DNA of 53,475 bases. It comes from Pedosphaera sp. Its GTDB lineage: Bacteria > Verrucomicrobiota > Verrucomicrobiia > Limisphaerales > F1-12-MAGs170. The notes beneath the pieces are model-generated. The model was not told the DNA's origin and did not search any database. It was given only the letters and a program-made list of their open reading frames with translations. The DNA lies in the NCBI GenBank assembly GCA_009695275.1, contig SIBF01000004.1, positions 1 through 53,475 on the forward strand, in the 5' to 3' direction. Numbering within the stretch: the stretch's first letter is position 1; each line of letters starts with the position of its first letter. Position numbers and translations under genes: made by a program. Below, piece by piece: positions 10,242 through 53,295 of this stretch.

Positions 10242-12575
10242 ATGACTCTTCACCTTGTGTCCTTTGTTCATGCTCTCGCATTTGTTCGAGGATGCCACAG
10301 ATTTCTAATTTGCCTGGCGCTTCTCAAAGGCGTTTGGGGAAATGCCGGAACCGAGACTGCAAAGCACTGGGCCTTTCAACCAATCGTGCGGCCGGCGCTC
10401 CCCGCCGGAAACAGCACCAACGCCATCGACCGGTTTGTCCTCGCAAGGTTATTGAAGAGCGGTGGTCCGGTTTTTTCAGAAGCCAACAGGCGAACGTTGG
10501 TCCGCCGCCTCAGCTTCAATCTGCGCGGTTTGCCTCCATCACCGGCGGAAGTGTCGGAGTTCCTCGCGGATGTGGCACAGGACGCGTACGAACGGTTGGT
10601 GGAACGTTTCCTCGCCTCTCCGCAATACGGCGAGCGGTGGGGACGGCACTGGCTGGACATTGTGGGTTACGCCGACTCGAATGGTTATTTCAACGCGGAC
10701 ACGGATCGACCTCTGGCTTGGAAGTATCGAGATTACGTCGTCCGCTCGATTGCCGCGGACAAACCGGTGAATCGTTTCATCACAGAGCAAATTGCAGGCG
10801 ACGAGTTGGCCGGTTACATCGCGGGAGGTGACGTGACTCCGGAGATGACAGAGGCCCTGATCGCAACGCATTTCTGGCGCAACGCACCTGACGGCAGCGG
10901 TGAGAGCGACGGGAATCCGCTTGAAGTCAAAGTGGATAATTACGCGGTGCTCGAAGGAAACGTCCATCTGCTCGGCTCGGCGTTCCTCGGGCTGACACTT
11001 CAATGCGCACGGTGCCACGATCACAAGTTCGAGCCGCTAACTCAGGACGATTATTACGCTCTGCAAGCGATCATTCGTCCAGTGTTCGACCCAAGCCGCT
11101 GGATCAAGCCAGACGAGCGCGTGATCGAAGCTGGCACCCGCGCCGCGCGCGATGGCAACCATAAACTCACGGCTGAAGTGGAGCGCGACCTCAAGACCTT
11201 GAACGCAAGCCTCGAGGGGTTGATCGGGCCATTCCGCAGACAAATGATCGAGGAAAACCTGGCGAAGTTCGTGGAGCCGTTTCGCAAAGATCTCTTGAAG
11301 GCGATCGACACGAAGGAAAAGGACCGCACCGAGTTGATGAAGTCGCTCCTGAAAACCAACGCGACGTTGGTTGATCTGAGTGAGGATACCGTGTTCAAGC
11401 GGTTTCCCACGGCAGCAACCGCGGCTCAACCGCTCAAGGTCGAGCTTCAATCCAGGCAGGCGGCGAAGCCGGTGCCGTTGGAACGTATCTCGGCAACGTT
11501 CGAGTCCACGAATTCACCTCCCGCGCATCATCTGCTCGTGCGAGGGAATCACGCGAGCGAAGGGAAGGAAGTGGCTCCGGGATTACCTCTGGCATTGCGC
11601 GGAACTGCTCTGCCTGGCGAAGGCCCGGCAAGCCTCGCGTCCACGATTTCTTCAGGACGCCGACTCTCACTGGCGCGGTGGCTGACATCAGCGGAAAATC
11701 CGGTTGTCGCCCGCGTGCTGGTGAATCGCGTGTGGCATTACCATTTCGGGCGGGGAATCGTGAGCACGATTGAGAATCTTGGGCAGGCCGGTGCAAAGCC
11801 GGCCAACCCCGGGCTGCTGGACTGGCTGGCGAGCGAGTTTGTCCGCTCAGGCTGGAGTTTGAAACATCTCCATCGGCTGATCGTGACGAGCGCCGCCTAT
11901 CGACAGGCGAGTCAGGAAACATCAGGCGAACGTGAGTCAAGCATTGCTGTACCCGGCACTGACTCGCTGAACACTCCACCTCTGAACTCTGTGTCGGCAG
12001 GACTGCGCCGCCTCGACGCTGAATCGCTCCGCGACGCAATGCTCGCTGTGACCGGGGAACTCGACTTGAAGCAAGGTGGACCATACGTGCCTACAAAAGT
12101 TGATGGCGAGGGTCAGATCATCATTGATGAAGCCCTGCCTGGCGCGCATCGGCGCTCCGTTTACCTCCAGCAGCGCCGGACGCATCCGGTGGACTTCCTG
12201 GCCACGTTCGACGGCCCGGCGCACAACCCGGTTTGTGTCCAGCGCGTTCCCTCGACCGTGGCTCAACAGTCACTATCGCTGCTGAATTCGGAATTCATCC
12301 GGACTCGTGCCAGGGCTTTCGCCAAACGCCTTCTGAGCGGCACGAGCACCGACTCGATCAAAGATGTTGCGCAGAGCGAGGAGCATAGCCTCATCGAAAA
12401 TGCCTTCGATATTGCCTACAACCGTCCGCCAGGCCAGGAAGAACTGGCAGCGGCGGAGAGCTTTCTTCGCGCCCAAGCAGCGGTTTATCCCGATCACAAA
12501 ACTCCCCGCGAGCAGGTTTGGTCCGACTTTTGCCAGATGCTGCTGGCGAGCAATGCATTCATGTATGTCGATTGA
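10242..12575 (+). CDS. PSCyt2/PSD1 (DUF1549/DUF1553) family protein
   Basis: Motifs CARCHDHKFEP and YGERWGRHWLDIVGYADSNGY. Co-linear with the 603..2879 protein. Its stop overlaps the downstream DUF1501 start. Confidence 0.85.
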   Translation: MTLHLVSFVHALAFVRGCHRFLICLALLKGVWGNAGTETAKHWAFQPIVRPALPAGNSTNAIDRFVLARLLKSGGPVFSEANRRTLVRRLSFNLRGLPPSPAEVSEFLADVAQDAYERLVERFLASPQYGERWGRHWLDIVGYADSNGYFNADTDRPLAWKYRDYVVRSIAADKPVNRFITEQIAGDELAGYIAGGDVTPEMTEALIATHFWRNAPDGSGESDGNPLEVKVDNYAVLEGNVHLLGSAFLGLTLQCARCHDHKFEPLTQDDYYALQAIIRPVFDPSRWIKPDERVIEAGTRAARDGNHKLTAEVERDLKTLNASLEGLIGPFRRQMIEENLAKFVEPFRKDLLKAIDTKEKDRTELMKSLLKTNATLVDLSEDTVFKRFPTAATAAQPLKVELQSRQAAKPVPLERISATFESTNSPPAHHLLVRGNHASEGKEVAPGLPLALRGTALPGEGPASLASTISSGRRLSLARWLTSAENPVVARVLVNRVWHYHFGRGIVSTIENLGQAGAKPANPGLLDWLASEFVRSGWSLKHLHRLIVTSAAYRQASQETSGERESSIAVPGTDSLNTPPLNSVSAGLRRLDAESLRDAMLAVTGELDLKQGGPYVPTKVDGEGQIIIDEALPGAHRRSVYLQQRRTHPVDFLATFDGPAHNPVCVQRVPSTVAQQSLSLLNSEFIRTRARAFAKRLLSGTSTDSIKDVAQSEEHSLIENAFDIAYNRPPGQEELAAAESFLRAQAAVYPDHKTPREQVWSDFCQMLLASNAFMYVD

Positions 12576-44048: not shown

Positions 44049-44193
44049 CAGTTGAAATGGAGAGCGCGGTCGTCTCGACCGCTGTTCTCGGCGTCTCGCC
44101 GAGAACTCAGTGGGCGTGACCAGTCACCAGAGGGTGGGTTTCCGGAGCGGACGAGCTGGTCAGCGAGACGCTGACCAGGGCGTGCGAGACGCA
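44049..44193. repeat. intergenic REP-like composite palindromic element (GGAGAGCGCGG…CGCGCTCCCC termini, four inner hairpins with TCTC/AGAC loops)
   Basis: Four hairpins read directly: GCGGTCG-TCTC-GACCGC, GTTCTCGGCG-TCTC-GCCGAGAAC, CTGGTCAGCG-AGAC-GCTGACCAG and GCGTGCG-AGAC-GCACGC. Located between convergent genes, where it could act as a terminator. Confidence 0.8.
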
Positions 44194-44219
44194 CGCGCTC
44201 CCCAATTGCGACTGAATAG

Positions 44220-45362
44220 TTACGGTTTAGTCGCTGAATTGCTGAAGCGGGGATTCCAAAATCGGCGTTCTATGAACCGGTGAAACAAACTGCCAAGCAG
44301 GATCGTTACGCCCACGCAGCAAGGAATCCGTAGTAGCAGAATCCCCATCGGGGTGTCGGCACCAGACGAATCAAAGGCATGCCCCACGAGCCGCACCACC
44401 GGCCAATGCACCAGATAAAGGCTGTAGCACATTAGTCCCAGAAAACGCAGTGGAGATAGAATCTGAAGGTTATACGCGGTGCCGTCCCATCGCTTCAGTC
44501 CGAGGATCAGCAGGGCGTAGGAAAATGCCGCCAGGTACGCTTGATTGAGTGGAAGCCGGAGTTGTCGCAAGTCTGGCACTGCCCACAGGATGCCGACCAC
44601 AAGCGGGAGACAAAACCAACCCCATCTTCGCAAGGGGACGTAATTCGAAACGTAATAGACCAGAACTCCCGAAGCGAACATCAGCCATTGACCATCGAGA
44701 AACAGGCCCTCCGTGCGCAACGTTCGCAGTGGAAACAGAACCAGGACGGTTACGATCAGCGTCACCAAACTCAGTGCATGAAAGAAAAATCGGCGCGTGA
44801 CGACCAACGCCAAACCTACCAGGAAATAGAACTGCTCTTCGAAACACAGCGTCCACGAAGGCGGCAGCAGGGGGTTTTCAGAGCCGCCAGTCAGATGCCA
44901 TCGCCAGGTTTCGGTCAGACTCAAATTCCCAAGCCACTGCCATCTCTTCAGTGATTGTGGCGGCGGGACGCCAAGAGCTTCAAAATAGCTCGCAGGAAGA
45001 AACCCCTCAGACAGCCATGCGAACAAGGCTGTCATAGCAAGCGCAGCCCAGAATGGCGGGTAAATCCGCCGGAAGCGTCGCCAGAAGAAAAACTTTGCCG
45101 CGCCAGGTTCCGATCGTAATAGGTCCGCCGATGCCGTGACGCAGTAGCCGCTGATCACAAAGAAGAGTGGAACTCCAATCCAGCACTTTCCCAGGATCGC
45201 AAAGATGCCAGCAGTCACGCCGCTGGTCTCCTGGAGCGGACTTCGCGCGGAATGATAAACGACGACGAGAAGGCAAGCAAAGCCCCGCCACAACGTCAGT
45301 GAGTCATAGCGAACTCGTGAGTGTGTTTCTCCGGCATTCTGCCTTTGGTCTTCCAGCTGCAA
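44220..45362 (-). CDS. acyltransferase family 3 (OafA-like) membrane O-acyltransferase
   Basis: N-terminal YDSLTLWRGFACLLVVVYH, the acyltransferase-3 signature, and about 10 TM helices. Confidence 0.8.
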   Translation of the reverse strand: MQLEDQRQNAGETHSRVRYDSLTLWRGFACLLVVVYHSARSPLQETSGVTAGIFAILGKCWIGVPLFFVISGYCVTASADLLRSEPGAAKFFFWRRFRRIYPPFWAALAMTALFAWLSEGFLPASYFEALGVPPPQSLKRWQWLGNLSLTETWRWHLTGGSENPLLPPSWTLCFEEQFYFLVGLALVVTRRFFFHALSLVTLIVTVLVLFPLRTLRTEGLFLDGQWLMFASGVLVYYVSNYVPLRRWGWFCLPLVVGILWAVPDLRQLRLPLNQAYLAAFSYALLILGLKRWDGTAYNLQILSPLRFLGLMCYSLYLVHWPVVRLVGHAFDSSGADTPMGILLLRIPCCVGVTILLGSLFHRFIERRFWNPRFSNSATKP

Positions 45363-45454
45363 ATCGTTTCACTCCACACACCGTGCGATAATCGGGCGAA
45401 AAGCCTTGCCAGCGGGGCCGTTTCTGACGCTCAACAGTGCCCGGTGAGAGAAAC

Positions 45455-48400
45455 TCACGCCAGGAGTGCTTTGGCCTTTGCCAACGCCTCGTCCAGCTTG
45501 CCCGGATCCTTGCCGCCACCGCGTGCGTTGTCGGGTTTGCCGCCGCCTTTGCCACCGACGATGGGGGCGATCTGCTGGATGATCTTTCCGGCCTGCACCT
45601 TCGCGGTGAAGTCCGGTGAGACGGAGGCGACCAGTGAGACGGCGTTGTTCGCTGCCCCACCGAGGACGATAACACCCTTGAACCGGCTCTTAAGCGCATC
45701 CACCACGGCTTGGAGATAATCCGCGTCGCCATCGGGGAAACCCTGCGTGATGAGCGGGATGCCGTTGACCGTCTCCGACCGGGTGAGCAACCAGGCCGCG
45801 GTCTGCGCCGCGTTTCGGGCGATGGACGTCTTGAGCGCCTTCTCCGACTCCTTCTGCTGCGCGAGCAGGCTCTCGACTTTCTTCTCCAACTCGGCGACGG
45901 GGGAATTCAACTTTCCCGCGACGGTGCGAAGGAGGTGAAGTTGCTGGTTCGCGAGTTCGTAAGCGGTGAGGCCGGCAACGGCTTCGATACGGCGCACGCC
46001 GGCAGCAATGGCGTTCTCGCTCACGATGCGGAACAGGCCAATCTCGCCTGTCGCACGGGTGTGGGTGCCGCCGCAGAGTTCCATTGAGTAACCATCCAGT
46101 TTGTTCGCCGCGCCGCCGATCTGGACGACGCGTACGGTGTCGCCGTATTTGTCGCCGAAGAATTGCATCACGTCCTTGCGCGATTTCACGTCGGCGTAGG
46201 GGACTTCGGTCCACGAGACGCCGGTGTTTTCAAGAATGCGTTCGTTGACGAGTTTCTCGATGTCGGCAACCTGCGCGGGTGTAAGCGGCGCGCTGTTGAA
46301 GTCGAAAGTCAGCTTGTCCGGGCCGACGAATGAACCTTTTTGCGACGCTTCCTGGCTTACGACTTCGTGCAGCGCCCAGTGGAGCAAGTGCGTGACGGTG
46401 TGGTGACGTTGGATGGCACTGCGGCGTTCGTGATCGACGGTGAGAAGGACTTCCGAACCGACAATTGGCAGCGCGTCGCCAGACGCGCTGGGAGCGCGAC
46501 CGTCCCGGTCGCCCTGCTGCGCGTCTCGCGCAGCAGATCGGTGGGGGTGGAAAACGAGAAACGTTGAGGAACTCGCGGCACCCTCGCGCGGGGAATCGGT
46601 CGGCGAGACGCCGACCGATGCGACCGGGACGGTCGCGCTCCCCTCTTCGATGAAATGGAGCCAGGTGTTGCCGGATTTTTGCGTGTTGGTGATGCGCCAG
46701 AGCTGGCCGCCGCCATTCAATTCGCCGGTGTCACCGACCTGGCCGCCCATCTCGGCGTAGCAGGCGGAAGCATCGAGGATGACAGCGGTCTTGTCCTTGA
46801 GCGAGACGACCTCCAGGACTTTGGCTTGGACGGCGAGGTGCTCGAAGCCGACGAACTTCGTGGGTGTCGTGGTCTCGATTTTCGAAAGTGAAATGACTTC
46901 CTTCTTCTGCGCGGCACGGGCGCGGGCGCGCTGCTCTTTCATCAGCTCTTCAAAGCCCTCCACGTCCACCGTCAGGCCACGTTCGCGCGCCATCAACTCG
47001 GTGAGGTCGAGCGGGAAGCCCTGCTCGTCATAAAGCCGGAACGCGAACGCACCTGAGATTTGGGCAGGGATGGCTTGGGGAGCGCGCCCGCCCCGGGCGC
47101 TGTTTCCCGCGCCCTCGCGGGAAACGGTCGGGCGTGGGACGTCACCGGACGCCGAGATTTCATTGTGCGTTCCCGAGCCGCCCGGGGCGGGCGCGCTCCC
47201 TGGCGCATCGGGAGTCCACAGCCAGCGATAATTCTCCGACGAGGGAACCACGGCGTTGTCCCAGGGATTGCGGCAGATGTAATGAAACTTCTCTTCCAAG
47301 TCCGAGTCGCCTCGCATCAGGCGGTCAAAAAAATCTTCCTCCCAAATATGAACTCCAGAGACCTTGGCCGCTTTGTTGATCTTGTGTGCGGTCGTGGACT
47401 TGATTCCGTGGAGGATTTCTCCGAGCGGATAAAAGACCGGTTTGCCGTCTTTGTCTTGCTCCTTGATTTGGGGTTCGAACAGCAGGTGAACATGGTCGGG
47501 CATCACGCGCGCGGCAAAAAGTTGATACTGCCGATGGGTGTGAGCATAGAGAACGCTCTCCAGCACGATGTCGCGCTCGGCCGGAGTGAGTTGCCGTTTC
47601 TCTCGCGTGGAGAAGGTCACCATGTATTTGCCCCAGGGTCGTTCGAAATGCGGCAGGCGTCTTTTGGAATAGGTAGCACCGGGGTTGTCGGACGCTCTGG
47701 GGCCGACCGCGAGGGCGCGGTCGGCTGCGCCCGGGGCGGGCGCGCTCCCCATCACCAATGGAAGCGGCGATCCCGCAGTCATGTGTGTCTTGTTTCCAAG
47801 TGTAATTCGAGCGGGACCACCCTGAATCAGACTCGCTTCCTCGTTGAAGAGCGCGATACCTTTGTCGAGCGTCTTGTTAAACGCCTCCTCCTCACGCTGG
47901 ATGACCTCCTGCACATGGGCTTTCCGGGCGCGAATTTCAGGGAAGACATCGCCCATTGTGTCGGCGAGCACGTCCACGAGCTTGTAGAAGAACGGTTGGT
48001 GGAAGCCGAGCGTGCGGCCGTAGCGCACGGCGCGGCGCAGGATGCGGCGGAGGACGTAGTTGCGGTCGGTGTTGCCGGGTTGGATGCCGTCGGCAATCGC
48101 AAACGAGAGCGTGCGGATGTGATCGGCAATAACCCGGAAGGCGATATCGAGCGCGATTTGCTCCGCACCATGGGCAGCGCGACCGTCCCGGTCGCTCTGT
48201 TGCGCGTCTCGCGCAACAGCCCCGGGGGTGTGGGAAGCGAGAGATGTTGAGGAACTCGCGGCACCCTCGCGCGCGGAATCGGTCGGCGGGACGCCGACCG
48301 ATGCGACCGGGACGGTCGCGCTCCCCGTCGCTTCGCGACGTAGCTTTTCCTCGGTCGCAGCGTCGGGTGTCCAGAGCCATCGATAGTTTTCCGTGGATGG

Positions 48401-49867
48401 CGCGACGCCGGAATCCCACGGGTTGCGGCAGATGTAGTGGAACTTCTCTTCGAGATCGGCGTCGCCACGAATCATGCGGTCGAACGATTCGTTCTCCCAC
48501 ACTTGGCCCGTGGTGTTTTCCGCCTTGTTGATCTCGTGGGCGGTGAACGATTTGATTGAGTGCATCAACTCGGACAGCGGCCAGAACACGGGCTTGCCTT
48601 CCTTGTCCTCCTCTTTGATCTGCGGCTCGAACAGGAAATGAACGTGATCGGGCATGACGCAGGCGGCATACATCTGATAGCGGCGCTGATCGTGTCCGAA
48701 AAGGAGGCTCTTGAGCACGATGTCCTGCGCTTGCGGCGAAAGCTGACGACGCTCGCGCGTTGTGAAACTAACCATGTATTTCGCCCACGGATGCTCGAAG
48801 TGCGGAAGGCGGCGCTTGTAGTAGGTAGCTTGAGGAGCGCGACCGTCACGGTCGCTCTGCTGCGCGTCCCGCGCGGCAGATCCGGGAGCGTGGGAAGCAG
48901 ATGATGCCGTTGGACTCGTCGCGCGCGTGGGATCGGGCGGCGGGACGCCGACCGGGGCGACCGGGACGGTCGCGCTCCCCGCTCCCTGCGGGAGTGTGCT
49001 GCCATAGCGTTTTCCACTCATTGCTTCCAGCGCGTCGAAGATCGGCCGAAAGATGTCGGTTTCATAGTTGGAGATTCTGGCGTTGGCGAAATCGGTCAGA
49101 CCCTTTGTGCCCTGCATGATGCTCGTGACGCGCTCGAAGCCCATGCCCGTATCCACGTGCTGGGCAGGCAACGGGGAGAATGTGCCGTCCGGGTTCGCGT
49201 TGAACTGGATGAAGACCAGGTTCCAGATCTCGATGCAGCGGGCGTCGCCTTTGTTGACAAGTGAACCCTTGGTGTCGCCAGCGGGCGTCAAATCAACGTG
49301 CAGTTCGGAGCAGGGACCGCATGGCCCGGTCTCACCCATCATCCAGAAGTTGTCTTTCTTGTTGCCGTTGACAATGTGGGCGGCGGGATCGAGGCCGACG
49401 CTGCGGAACTTTTCGGCCCAGAAGTTCCATGCTTCCTCGTCGCGCTCGGCAGGATCACCAATGGATTTGTCCGGATTGTAAATCGTGGCATAGAGCCGTT
49501 GGGGCGGAAATTTCCAGACACCGATAACCAATTCCCACGCCCACTCAATAGCCTCTTTCTTGAAGTAATCGCCGAAGGACCAGTTGCCGAGCATTTCGAA
49601 GAACGTGTGGTGGTAGGTATCAAGGCCGACGTCGTCGAGGTCGTTGTGCTTGCCGCCGGCGCGGATGCACTTCTGGGTGTCGGCGGCGCGGCCGGGTGTG
49701 TAGGGGCACCTGGTCTGGCCGAGGAAGATGGGCACGAACTGGTTCATGCCGGCGTTCGTGAACAGGAGGTTCGGCGAATCGGGCATTAGCGAGGACGATG
49801 GGACGATGGAGTGCTGCTTCGACTTGAAGAAGTCGAGAAACGACTGGCGGATTTGCGAACTCGTCAT
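45455..49867 (-). CDS. alaS: alanine–tRNA ligase (AlaS) carrying three in-frame mobile-element-derived insertions (1471 aa)
   Basis: N-terminus [50 protein letters not shown], tRNA-recognition block [37 protein letters not shown], editing-site [31 protein letters not shown], and C-Ala tail [16 protein letters not shown] are all collinear with AlaS. The roughly 600 extra residues map to three discrete stop-free inserts listed as separate features. Confidence 0.85.
   Translation of the reverse strand: [1470 protein letters not shown]
46484..46645. repeat. solo REP-like palindrome inserted in frame in alaS (~53 codons) just upstream of the editing-domain HxxxH region
   Basis: GGAGCGCGACCGTCCCGGTCGC…CTGCGCG-TCTC-GCGCAG…CGGTCGGCG-AGAC-GCCGACCG…GCGACCGGGACGGTCGCGCTCC. 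Translated as [54 protein letters not shown], between …WLHFIE and [17 protein letters not shown]. Confidence 0.8.
47075..47749 (-). mobile_element. second REP–RAYT–REP module in frame in alaS, 225 codons, ~70% identical RAYT core, variant REP termini
   Basis: Core [26 protein letters not shown]…[13 protein letters not shown]…[16 protein letters not shown]…YRWLWTPDA. Flanks GGGAGCGCGCCCGCCCCGGGCG… are GC-variant relatives of the first REP. The right flank is a 129-bp perfect palindrome encoding GSAPAPGG…RGGRAPQ. The insert lies in the helical tRNA-binding domain between …EEASLIQG and [13 protein letters not shown]. Confidence 0.8.
48173..48979 (-). mobile_element. REP–RAYT–REP module (IS200/IS605-like Y1/HuH transposase, TnpA_REP type) inserted in frame in alaS, 269 codons
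   Basis: Flanked by two ~160-bp palindromic REPs with GGAGCGCGACCGTCCCGGTCGC…GCGACCGGGACGGTCGCGCTCC termini, translated as GSATVPV…RDGRAPQ. The core is [26 protein letters not shown]…[13 protein letters not shown] (HuH) …[15 protein letters not shown] (catalytic Tyr) …YRWLWTPDA. It has no stop codon of its own and reads in the alaS frame. The insert sits between the aminoacylation and tRNA-recognition domains. Confidence 0.8.
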
Positions 49868-50077
49868 TCGTTGAAATGTTAAATCGTTAAATTGTGAACC
49901 GTAAAATCTTTGCCGCGAAAGAACGCAGAGAACACAAAGAATTCTTCCGCAACAAGGCGGGGAAACTAGCCGAAACCGTCCACGAGAGGCGAGTGGAAGT
50001 TTTGGCCCTTTTGGAGGTTCCACTGAAGAGGCAAGCGTGCCCGGCAGCCTTTTCCGACAAAACAGCCGGAAGAGTAT

Positions 50078-50740
50078 TCAGGGCATGAAACGGGGGGGAG
50101 GTGCTTTCACGAACGTCGTCGCGCGGAGATAGATGGGTTCAAGCAGCTCTCCTGGCAGGAAGTTGCTTCGCGTAACCGCGAGCTGACCGATGGCAGATGC
50201 GGCTGGCTCAACGTCGTGTGCTGATTGGAATTTTGCGGATAACCCCGGTCCGAAAAGACCACATTGATCACCGAGCAGAGAGTCGAGTTGTTCACGAGAC
50301 TTGAGGTTCATGGCTTCGATAATCGCGATGGTATTCGGGAAAATGTTCAACAAGGTCACGTAGAATTCACCTCGCTGCGCATCAATGGCGATTCGCACTT
50401 TGTCCCGGAGGCCTCTTTGCTGGAGTTGAAATGCGATGGCGTCAGCGCTGCCAACGCCTTGGAGTTTCAGACCTGTCGCCAGTTGCCAGCCCTGGGCGAT
50501 GGAGATGGCTGCCCGGATGCCGGTGTAGGAACCAGGTCCGAGTCCAACCACGATCTCACTTATCTCGCCGCGTTTGAGCCCGGCAACTCCAAGCGCGTTT
50601 TGTATCAACGCCAGCGGACGCACATTGCGATCCCCGGCATCGGCGGCTTCTCCCAGGATCTTCGCGGCACTGTCGCCATTGGCGGAAAGGATCGCCGCGC
50701 TCCGGATATTTCCTGAGAATTCGAGCGCCAATGTGATCAT
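50078..50740 (-). CDS. tsaB: tRNA threonylcarbamoyladenosine biosynthesis protein TsaB (YeaZ)
   Basis: MITLALEFSGNIRSAAIL…VVGLGPGSYTGIRAAISIAQG. Start chosen at MITLAL, 4-bp overlap with tsaE. Confidence 0.8.
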   Translation of the reverse strand: MITLALEFSGNIRSAAILSANGDSAAKILGEAADAGDRNVRPLALIQNALGVAGLKRGEISEIVVGLGPGSYTGIRAAISIAQGWQLATGLKLQGVGSADAIAFQLQQRGLRDKVRIAIDAQRGEFYVTLLNIFPNTIAIIEAMNLKSREQLDSLLGDQCGLFGPGLSAKFQSAHDVEPAASAIGQLAVTRSNFLPGELLEPIYLRATTFVKAPPPRFMP

Positions 50741-52866: not shown

Positions 52867-52958
52867 CCGGCGGAAACTAAGCAGCGGCTTCGTGAGTTAC
52901 GATGGAAAAATGAGGTTGGCGCTGATTGCCGAAGGCTCTTATCCGAATCCATGCAACA

Positions 52959-53130
52959 GGAGCGCGGAATTCATTCCGCGTGGATCCTGCAAGGCCCCAA
53001 GGGCTGTAGGCTCGACGACATGCCAAGTGATCAAAAACCAGGTCATAGGAAAGTGACCAACGCGAAAAGCAATTTGCCGCGGCCGAAATCTCCGGCCAAA
53101 GTGGGAATTCCACGCGGCTGCGGAATAAAT
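52959..53130. repeat. REP-like nested inverted repeat element (GGAGCGCGGAATTCATTCCGCG…CGCGGAATAAATTCCGCGCTCC)
   Basis: 20-bp terminal inverted repeat with 1 mismatch. An inner pair CCGCGTGGAAT/ATTCCACGCGG. Shares the GGAGCGCG terminus with the alaS REPs. Confidence 0.65.
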
Positions 53131-53295
53131 TCCGCGCTCCTATTGAATTGTTCCGCATGTCCGCTGCGAGGCCTCCCCCAATTGACTTACACTCGGTGAA
53201 GTAATGAAAGACAAGCTGTTTTGACTGGCTGTCCCTTCGAACGATGCTTTCGCCACCGTAAAGCCCATCGTTGATGGAATGAAGGACTCTCACCG

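Follow-up and report, generated by a model that had tools for sequence, protein, structure and literature searches.

REP-associated tyrosine transposases (RAYTs; REP, repetitive extragenic palindrome) are regarded as single-copy, free-standing and domesticated genes, with both the benefit to the host and their regulation unknown. In the 53-kb stretch of DNA analysed here (53,475 nt, Pedosphaera sp., contig SIBF01000004.1; hereafter the window), a palindromic element that we term E2 lies in frame within the alanyl-tRNA synthetase (AlaRS) gene alaS, which also contains RAYT domains and further REP doublets forming hairpins (REPINs; E3, E5 and E6): E2 is itself such a REPIN, probably copied from E5 into a loop of the synthetase that tolerates it. 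This arrangement recalls the Rickettsia palindromic elements (RPEs), which, according to Ogata and colleagues in 2000, are reportedly about 100–150 bp in length, lie in frame in housekeeping genes and are translated into surface regions of their products. E2 shares with the RPEs its palindromic nature, in-frame position, housekeeping host and apparent tolerance, but belongs to an unrelated lineage and is unrelated in sequence; and whilst we know of no dedicated transposase for the RPEs, the cognate RAYT of E2 is encoded in the same open reading frame (ORF). The parallel with RPEs drawn in an earlier note on this DNA is hence apt as an analogy, the organism being a verrucomicrobium for which RPE membership is not claimed.

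The closest described systems are those of REPs or REPINs and their RAYTs (Nunvar 2010, PMC2817692; Bertels & Rainey 2011, PMC3116915; PMC8266576). As in these systems, the alaS locus exhibits hairpin repeats of high G+C content whose 5' head is conserved, doublets in inverted orientation that form one long hairpin, a Y1/HUH-type RAYT with identical repeat types on both sides and a separate REP variant for each RAYT. In contrast to them, the element and the RAYTs are intragenic and apparently translated instead of extragenic (E2 lies inside the alaS ORF), the foot of the repeat is TGGG-like and not GTAG, a second hairpin with a variable stem is present, and the copies in the window are all located in one gene. 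REPs within genes have been described by Di Nocera et al. 2013 (PMC3733652), who reported single REPs and dimers lying wholly in ORFs of known function and contributing 20–82 residues: most of the GTAG-type intragenic cases come from Opitutus terrae, a verrucomicrobium, glycyl- and isoleucyl-tRNA synthetases and repair genes are among the hosts, and some cases from R. conorii were equated with RPEs. E2 is an intragenic in-frame REP in the sense of that study, as it lies wholly in an ORF, keeps the frame and is absent from homologs, but alaS is not a host listed there, and neither a recurrent hot spot for several REP types nor a RAYT in frame in its host was described. The claim that the REP family can invade coding sequence is not new given the many intragenic cases in PMC3733652. 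Furthermore, Quentin et al. 2018 (PMC6006769) found REPs in frame inside tnpAREP genes of subclass 2.4 and set aside 'unexpectedly long' TnpA proteins, which they took for fusions or errors of annotation; the host in their cases is the transposase gene itself, whereas here an essential synthetase hosts REPINs and RAYTs. Finally, E2 resembles inteins, IStrons and MITEs (miniature transposable elements with inverted repeats) in being a selfish element that persists in a gene by sparing its product, with MITEs also being non-autonomous transposon derivatives, but it displays no Hint domain, no intron RNA family and no DDE-type terminal inverted repeats with target-site duplication. Taken alone, E2 adds one case to the published in-frame intragenic REPs and is of low to moderate novelty; what it supplies, for tolerated palindromic repeats in essential genes, is a control in the form of alleles with an empty site, a mapping onto the protein structure and a census of the hot spot.

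E2 is a REP doublet within the alaS reading frame

E2 is contained in a single ORF of 1522 codons (45455-50023, minus strand), for which Pfam analysis identified the domains tRNA-synt_2c, tRNA_SAD and DHHA1 and additionally two Y1_Tnp (IS200-like transposase) domains; the first three identify the ORF as alaS. The probable start codon is the ATG at 49867: ahead of the conserved MTSSQIRQSF start, the frame stays open over another 52 codons (49868-50023), and the mechanically called ORF of 1522 residues is too long by that much. Within this gene, positions 46490-46643 form a REP doublet of 154 nt, which confirms the earlier note with small corrections. The host gene and the parts of E2 are as follows, where hp1 and hp2 denote the first and second hairpin of each REP, L numbers related DNA loci and P numbers homologous proteins:

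45455-49867, minus strand: host gene alaS (Pfam domains; HxxxH motif at 46379-46402 and CxxxH motif at 46061-46075 intact)
46484-46645, minus strand: net in-frame insertion of 162 nt = 54 codons, EGSATVPV...DGRAPSA (compared with the empty alleles L120/L121)
46490-46643, minus strand: REPIN E2, two inverted REPs and spacer (repeat, inverted-repeat and fold analyses; 90% identical to E5)
46620-46643, minus strand: gene-proximal REP head and conserved hp1, GGGGAGC-GCGACCG-TCC-CGGTCGC (consensus of 179 copies)
46595-46619, minus strand: hp2 of the gene-proximal REP, ATCGGTCGGCG-TCT-CGCCGACCGAT (fold and hairpin survey)
46537-46594, minus strand: non-palindromic spacer of 58 nt, common to E5 (frame and paralog comparison)
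46514-46536, minus strand: hp2 of the gene-distal REP, CTGCTGCGCG-AGA-CGCGCAGCAG (compensatory pair relative to E5)
46490-46512, minus strand: gene-distal REP hp1 and head, inverted (head-motif scan)
46469-46490, minus strand: extra 9-bp hairpin CAGCGCGTC-GCCA-GACGCGCTG adjoining E2 (flank DNA and fold)

The interval 46484-46645 originally reported is correct as the net insertion, although this amounts to 54 codons and not 53, with the palindrome proper confined to 46490-46643. The termini of E2 are GGGAGCGCG and CGCGCTCCC, with GGAGCGCG found at 46491-46498 and CGCGCTCC at 46634-46641, and its arms (46490-46529 and 46603-46642) are 85% complementary across 40 nt. On either side within the element lies the 17-nt hairpin GCGACCG-TCC-CGGTCGC, each next to a second hairpin, and the inner loops, previously given as TCTC and AGAC, were essentially right (TCT and AGA). 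E2 comprises two inverted REP hairpins and a short spacer that fold into one long hairpin: the DNA fold reaches -68 kcal/mol (z -8.47; 0 of 200 shuffles as good) and the mRNA-sense fold -127.6 kcal/mol across 201 nt (z -9.97). The element is 90% identical to E5 (139 of 154 positions; 48173-48326) and 75% identical to E6 (48831-48981). Arms, fold and copies hence bear out the description of a REP-type palindrome with matching ends inside alaS. A scan of the window for the 22-nt REP head returned nine copies compared with 0.00 expected, all of them within alaS (46491-48978). Counted over the 53-kb window, the type is represented by these nine heads and by three REPINs, again all in alaS; the type also occurs at many loci of related metagenome-assembled genomes (MAGs).

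The frame of the insert deserves comment, as it had been proposed that the element is free of stop codons because it is palindromic. E2 is open in five of the six frames, with the sole stop found in the spacer in one frame of the opposite strand. Dinucleotide shuffles of E2 (72% G+C) have a mean of 4.0 of six frames open, with at least five open in 33% of them, and the probability that a given frame is open in random 162-nt pieces of the window is 0.37: palindromy is ruled out by the shuffles as the reason for the open frames, as the G+C composition of 72% suffices. The frame in use encodes small residues, and the other two are rich in Arg. Relative to the AlaRS core (5% S, 10% A and 4% P), the inserted peptide is enriched in Ser (17%), Ala (17%) and Pro (9%), as had been noted.

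The E2 segment is an insertion and not native AlaRS sequence

In order to separate insertion from native sequence, E2 was compared with the 120 best AlaRS homologs, all from Verrucomicrobiota (with names such as 'Verrucomicrobiae', 'subdivision 3', Limisphaerales and Pedosphaera). The resulting sample of 121 AlaS sequences favours those sharing words with the query, so that counts from it are not population frequencies. In the window, E2 is flanked by WLHFIE (46646-46663) and LPIVGSEV (46448-46471), whilst 62 of the AlaRS sequences read ...WLHF(I/V)E-GGDAPAxG... at this position or exhibit a comparably short loop. The empty alleles of L120 and L121 contain TTC ATC GAG|GGC GGC GAC GCG in their DNA (empty-site sequence GAGGGCGGCGACGCG), compared with GAA GAG GGGAGCGCG...CGCGCTCCC AGC GCG TCT GGC GAC GCG in the window, which is a net gain of 54 codons; an example of the junction peptide of the insert is DGRAPSASGDALPIVGSEVLLTVDHER. 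In the solved AlaRS structure from A. fulgidus (3wqy), the two sides of the insert correspond to residues 574 and 575, which directly follow one another.

In an AlphaFold2 model of ORF residues 989-1522, built from 43 aligned sequences, model residues 141-194 represent the insert, which connects two beta-strands in the beta-barrel subdomain preceding the editing core; the earlier note had put it at a putative entrance of the editing domain. These strands are predicted with a predicted local distance difference test (pLDDT) score of about 90 or more, whilst the insert is a coil of pLDDT ~30 with no secondary structure, and is thus predicted to be a disordered surface loop. It lies close to the HTVTHLLH motif, although not immediately N-terminal to it as had been stated: the insert ends at ORF residue 1180 and the motif begins at residue 1208, 28 residues on. 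Both the ortholog comparison and the structural modelling that had been suggested as checks therefore give the same answer as the solved structure: the E2 segment is an insertion, for which empty-site alleles exist (L120/L121; 62 of 121 sequences).

Two RAYT domains are encoded in frame in alaS

E2 had been described as a solo element that invades coding sequence without transposase cargo. This is true locally, but a cognate RAYT is encoded ~1.5 kb upstream in the same ORF. The gene contains two units of RAYT and flanking REPs (REPtrons):

48173-48981, minus strand: REPtron 1, in frame, consisting of REPIN E6 (48831-48981), RAYT-1 and REPIN E5 (48173-48326); same REP type as E2
47076-47751, minus strand: REPtron 2, in frame, consisting of a single REP (47727-47748), RAYT-2 and REPIN E3 (47076-47200); REP variant GGAGCGCGCCCGCCCCGGGCGC

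RAYT-1 and RAYT-2 each represent a REP-associated tyrosine transposase domain of full length with HUH and Tyr motifs, and these catalytic residues are nearly invariant among orthologs. Against NCBIfam NF047646 (cut-off 80), the score of RAYT-1 is 80.2 bits; the domain also matches Pfam Y1_Tnp and retains intact HVHFLF and YICRNP motifs; a sequence search of the PDB with the RAYT-1 domain gave no match at E <= 0.01. RAYT-1 is flanked by the same REPs on both sides (E6 and E5), and each RAYT is accompanied by one REP variant (RAYT-1 by variant 1, RAYT-2 by variant 2, GGAGCGCGCCCGCCCCGGGCGC), which is the published signature of REPtrons (PMC6006769). Because there is no Met before the conserved RRLPHFE(H/R)PW N-terminus and no stop after the domains, the RAYTs are most probably produced as internal domains of AlaRS. 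The automatic annotation of JGI names such proteins 'alanyl-tRNA synthetase/REP element-mobilizing transposase RayT', and no report of RAYT domains or REPINs inside alaS was found in the full-text literature searched, in which few subscription journals are covered.

RAYT homologs of ~205-260 residues are also called as free-standing, of which two were inspected. P0121 (L134:2133-5674), called as a free-standing RAYT of 220 residues, is really located between fragments of a frame-broken alaS, and P0139 (L135) is a RAYT wedged between pilus-related genes, with an overlap of 1 nt and a gap of 2 nt. 'Stand-alone' RAYT calls in the clade may often be pieces of alaS, which makes the free-standing fraction uncertain.

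Recurrent insertion at three positions of AlaRS

Three positions take up nearly all of the length variation in the 121 AlaS sequences. Site 1 (query residues 345-618) is occupied by a RAYT-sized insert in 64 sequences and by a short one in 36, with 21 empty; at site 2 (query residues 731-988) the corresponding numbers are 65, 53 and 3. Site 3, where E2 is located, differs in that it holds a RAYT-sized insert in only one case, with 57 short and 63 empty by length; classified by peptide, 62 are empty (two of these with 6-8 extra residues), 58 are of REP type and one is a whole RAYT. The peptides at site 3 belong to at least six REP-derived types, which read one and the same REP head in all three frames (giving GSATVPVA, GARPSRS and others) and show no conserved sequence across types; P0026 and P0114 carry GTGV(S/P)PV and HGRDARAT, which are peptides listed for the GTAG-19 REPs of O. 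terrae (GTGVPPV and HGRHARAT there). Among the aligned sequences, site 3 is thus a recurrent hot spot for REP insertion. A neighbour-joining tree with Fitch parsimony requires at least 28 changes between empty and filled states at site 3, compared with 40.5 for shuffled tips; as the sequences are ~80% identical and the tree is poorly resolved, this is an indication of high turnover.

The repeats are conserved at the nucleotide level

The REP consensus derived from 179 copies (the window and loci L001-L124) is (A/T)TGG-G-GAGCGCG-(A/C)CCG-(T/C)CC-CGG-(T/G)CGC. In 138 of the 179 copies, the conserved hairpin is followed directly on its 3' side by a second one with 8 or more Watson-Crick pairs, compared with 0 of 179 after shuffling, and these second hairpins comprise 106 different stems under a constant GCG-TCY-CGC top: such covariation in the stem argues for selection on the structure of the nucleic acid. 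The REPINs flanking RAYT-1 are 0.88 identical between the window and L121 and 0.83 between the window and L120, where four-fold sites are identical at only 0.63 and 0.56, respectively; for L122 and L124, the site-3 REPIN is 0.97 identical and four-fold sites 0.81. Since the identity of the REPINs exceeds that of the four-fold sites, conservation of the repeats is stronger than at neutral positions of the gene that hosts them, chiefly in the arms.

Origin of E2

We consider it likely that E2 is best explained as a REPIN of the RAYT-1 type that was copied from E5 into a permissive loop of AlaRS and is tolerated there. E2 would be a non-autonomous REPIN, in which each REP consists of the conserved hairpin followed by the second one, and its cognate HUH/Y1 transposase would be RAYT-1, in frame in the same gene and flanked by the same REPINs: REPtron 1 is the likely source of both E2 and its enzyme, and RAYT-1 presumably mobilised it. 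E2 is nearest to the E5 found in the same gene, at 0.90 with the spacer included, and less similar to the E5 orthologs of L120 and L121 (0.78-0.81), in which site 3 is empty; because of this, E2 is a paralog, specific to the lineage, of the flank downstream of RAYT-1. The copy of E5 would have been placed, in this lineage, into the beta-barrel loop, at a position that bears REPs in many relatives and that probably held an older REP in the source lineage, too. The route may have been RAYT-mediated cleavage and joining of single strands, or conversion from REP to REP; TnpAREP is able to cut and rejoin its cognate single-stranded REPs in vitro (PMC8266576). Survival of the copy could then be attributed to its net length of 54 codons, to a stop-less, G+C-rich frame and to small flexible residues (G/S/A/T/P/V) in a disordered loop, with which AlaRS would keep working; the insert would be close to neutral for the enzyme.

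Several observations weigh against this explanation. The canonical foot GT[AG]G is replaced by a TGG(G)-like foot (TGGG/AGGG/CTGG): the two feet of E2 read AGGG and CTGG, with the closest published variant being the GTGG foot of the O. terrae GTAG-20 family (Di Nocera et al. 2013, PMC3733652). The structural model has a mean pLDDT of 66.9, which is of moderate overall quality even if the flanks of the insert are confident, and the evidence for translation of the insert is its open frame. A metagenome scan with the codon-degenerate right flank LPIVGSEVLLTVDHERR gave 0 matches to a near-identical strain with an empty site, and no target-site signature separating transposition from recombination was found. 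Lastly, the distal (right) hairpin of E2, CTGCTG...CAGCAG, is of the E6 type and departs from E5 by a compensatory pair, which hints at mosaicism or gene conversion and not at a simple copy.

This hairpin, taken together with two features of the site, suggests that an older REP already occupied a landing-pad site and that E2 inserted into it or took its place. The first concerns the left junction: filled alleles for which DNA is available have the same hp1 head starting 0-2 codons from FIE, whatever comes next (the exception being L133, with six extra codons), and L122 and L124, whose AlaRS cores are ~76% identical to that of the window, exhibit the identical left junction GAAGAG|GGGAGCGCG and the same arms with another spacer. 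The second is the half-hairpin encoding GDALP on the opposite side. A landing pad would fit REPs being both substrate and target of their transposase. As to the extra hairpin at 46469-46490 itself, its host-side half encodes GDALP, like a decayed REP end (..GETPALPIPG) in the insert that the nearest relatives carry, which points to insertions that were nested or followed one another.

The same observations could be accommodated without a transposase, if ectopic conversion or recombination inside alaS had copied E5 onto the older REP with the shared heads as homology: the constant position of the hp1 head in filled alleles, the resemblance of the right flank GGCGACGCGCTGCC (GDALP) to the decayed end of the relatives' insert and the mosaic appearance of E2, with the left part and spacer E5-like and the right hairpin E6-like, are all in line with this. 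However, the same REP type is found in frame in unrelated genes (gltD-like, ValRS, PurL and PurB, see below) of other genomes, for which a mechanism of dispersal is needed, and the REP arms are kept intact as RAYT-type substrates, and thus we regard a purely recombinational origin as unlikely.

E2 might also be a remnant comparable to a solo long terminal repeat (LTR), in which a complete REPIN-RAYT-REPIN unit once resided at site 3 and recombination between its flanks deleted the RAYT, leaving one REPIN in frame. P0016 indeed holds a whole RAYT at exactly site 3, the short inserts of P0053 and P0103 read as the left flank of P0016 joined to its right flank, and at sites 1 and 2, where other orthologs hold RAYTs, the inserts of 36 and 53 orthologs, respectively, are short and consist of REP only. 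Loss of this kind does occur at site 3 in another REP type, but it fits E2 less well than a copy of E5: the identity of 90% to E5 extends over the full length including the spacer, as expected of a paralog of an existing flank and not of a hybrid from a separate unit, no RAYT remnant is present at E2, a RAYT at site 3 is found in only 1 of 121 orthologs, and the flanks of P0016 are of another REP type. We therefore deem this origin quite improbable for E2.

A function for the host, either through an mRNA structure that tunes translation or stability of alaS or through a loop that modifies the AlaRS beta-barrel or editing, would agree with the high stability of the mRNA structure (-127.6 kcal/mol, z -10), with a REPIN conservation above the synonymous level and with the presence of some insert at site 3 in about half of the orthologs. 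Such a function appears very unlikely, as the at least six unrelated peptide types, the use of three reading frames and the lack of an insert in half of the orthologs speak against a specific role in the protein, whilst the conservation lies in the hairpin arms, as transposase substrates would show, and the insert is predicted to be disordered. Native lineage-specific AlaRS sequence, already refuted, or a spliced intein or intron has nothing in its favour other than the retained frame and can be practically dismissed, given the 90% identity to another element of alaS, the empty-site orthologs and the lack of Hint/intein, Pfam/NCBIfam or Rfam matches. The search for an intein covered Hint domains as well as Pfam and NCBIfam, none of which matched the insert, predicted as it is to be disordered; that for a group I/II intron or IStron covered Rfam, with no match at E <= 0.1 (group I/II introns included) in 45000-50500. 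A copy of E5 tolerated in the loop thus remains our preferred explanation.

The REP type in other genes and in the alaS clade

A scan for the REP head in one genome per species returned at least 119 loci, mostly in Verrucomicrobiota MAGs. Among the matches listed, REP peptides are in frame in valyl-tRNA synthetase (ValRS; L026 and L044, at different sites), PurL (L039), adenylosuccinate lyase/PurB (L110) and GlnE (L064), with these hosts confirmed by Pfam; further hosts among them are several large secreted or cytochrome proteins and alaS of L051, L061, L086, L093 and L118. In a Chthoniobacteraceae MAG (L048:5118-7886), a RecG protein of 923 residues contains a whole RAYT in frame between DEAD and Helicase_C, after a GSAPVPGA REP peptide. 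The exact hp1 and hp2 arm of E2 occurs in ten metagenomic copies, all intragenic and all in the GSATVPVAS frame, with alaS site 1 accounting for three, alaS site 3 for five and a gltD-like gene for two; as these derive from perhaps 3-4 independent events, the frame bias is suggestive only. The gltD-like (glutamate synthase small-subunit-like) gene, assigned as such from the flanking peptide, carries a short in-frame REPIN of the E2-arm subfamily (GSATVPVASVGVPP..ARDAQQSDRDGRAP) at L129:~2500-2700 and L131:~11400-11560.

The in-frame RAYTs in alaS across the clade, with two RAYTs read as parts of AlaRS in more than 60 of the 121 sampled orthologs, are the more unusual feature of this locus and deserve follow-up. 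It is possible, albeit somewhat short of probable, that alaS serves an intragenic REPtron as a conserved home, passed on vertically, across a clade of Verrucomicrobiota at the level of an order (Pedosphaerales/Limisphaerales-like), where the RAYTs would exist only as internal domains of AlaRS and the REPINs would be live, selected substrates that repeatedly reshape three permissive loops and seed in-frame copies into other housekeeping genes. If true, this would represent a new strategy of persistence for a domesticated transposase, with its expression and retention tied to an essential gene. The locus offers a tractable system for analysing how pairs of REPIN and RAYT persist and whether insertion targets REP-like sequences, and it calls for caution in annotation pipelines and in phylogenomics relying on the lengths or alignments of aminoacyl-tRNA synthetases.

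Other repeats in the window

Further repeats were observed outside alaS. An intergenic REPIN of another subfamily (GCGGTCG-TCT-CGACCGC and GCGTGCG-TCT-CGCACGC) lies at 44054-44204 between two convergent ORFs, and two REP-like hairpins in inverted orientation (GGAGCGCGGAATTCATTCCGC and the one paired with it) follow ACAG/ATAG at 52941-53158, nearer to the canonical GTAG foot; as this pair overlaps only an ORF of 138 codons (52877-53293, minus strand), it is probably intergenic. Finally, several stretches of 70-100 nt with 72-78% similarity across widely separated regions (1222-1319/11808-11905, 12742-12842/39009-39109, 10981-11068/41624-41711 and 2085-2156) probably represent conserved motifs of paralogous genes.

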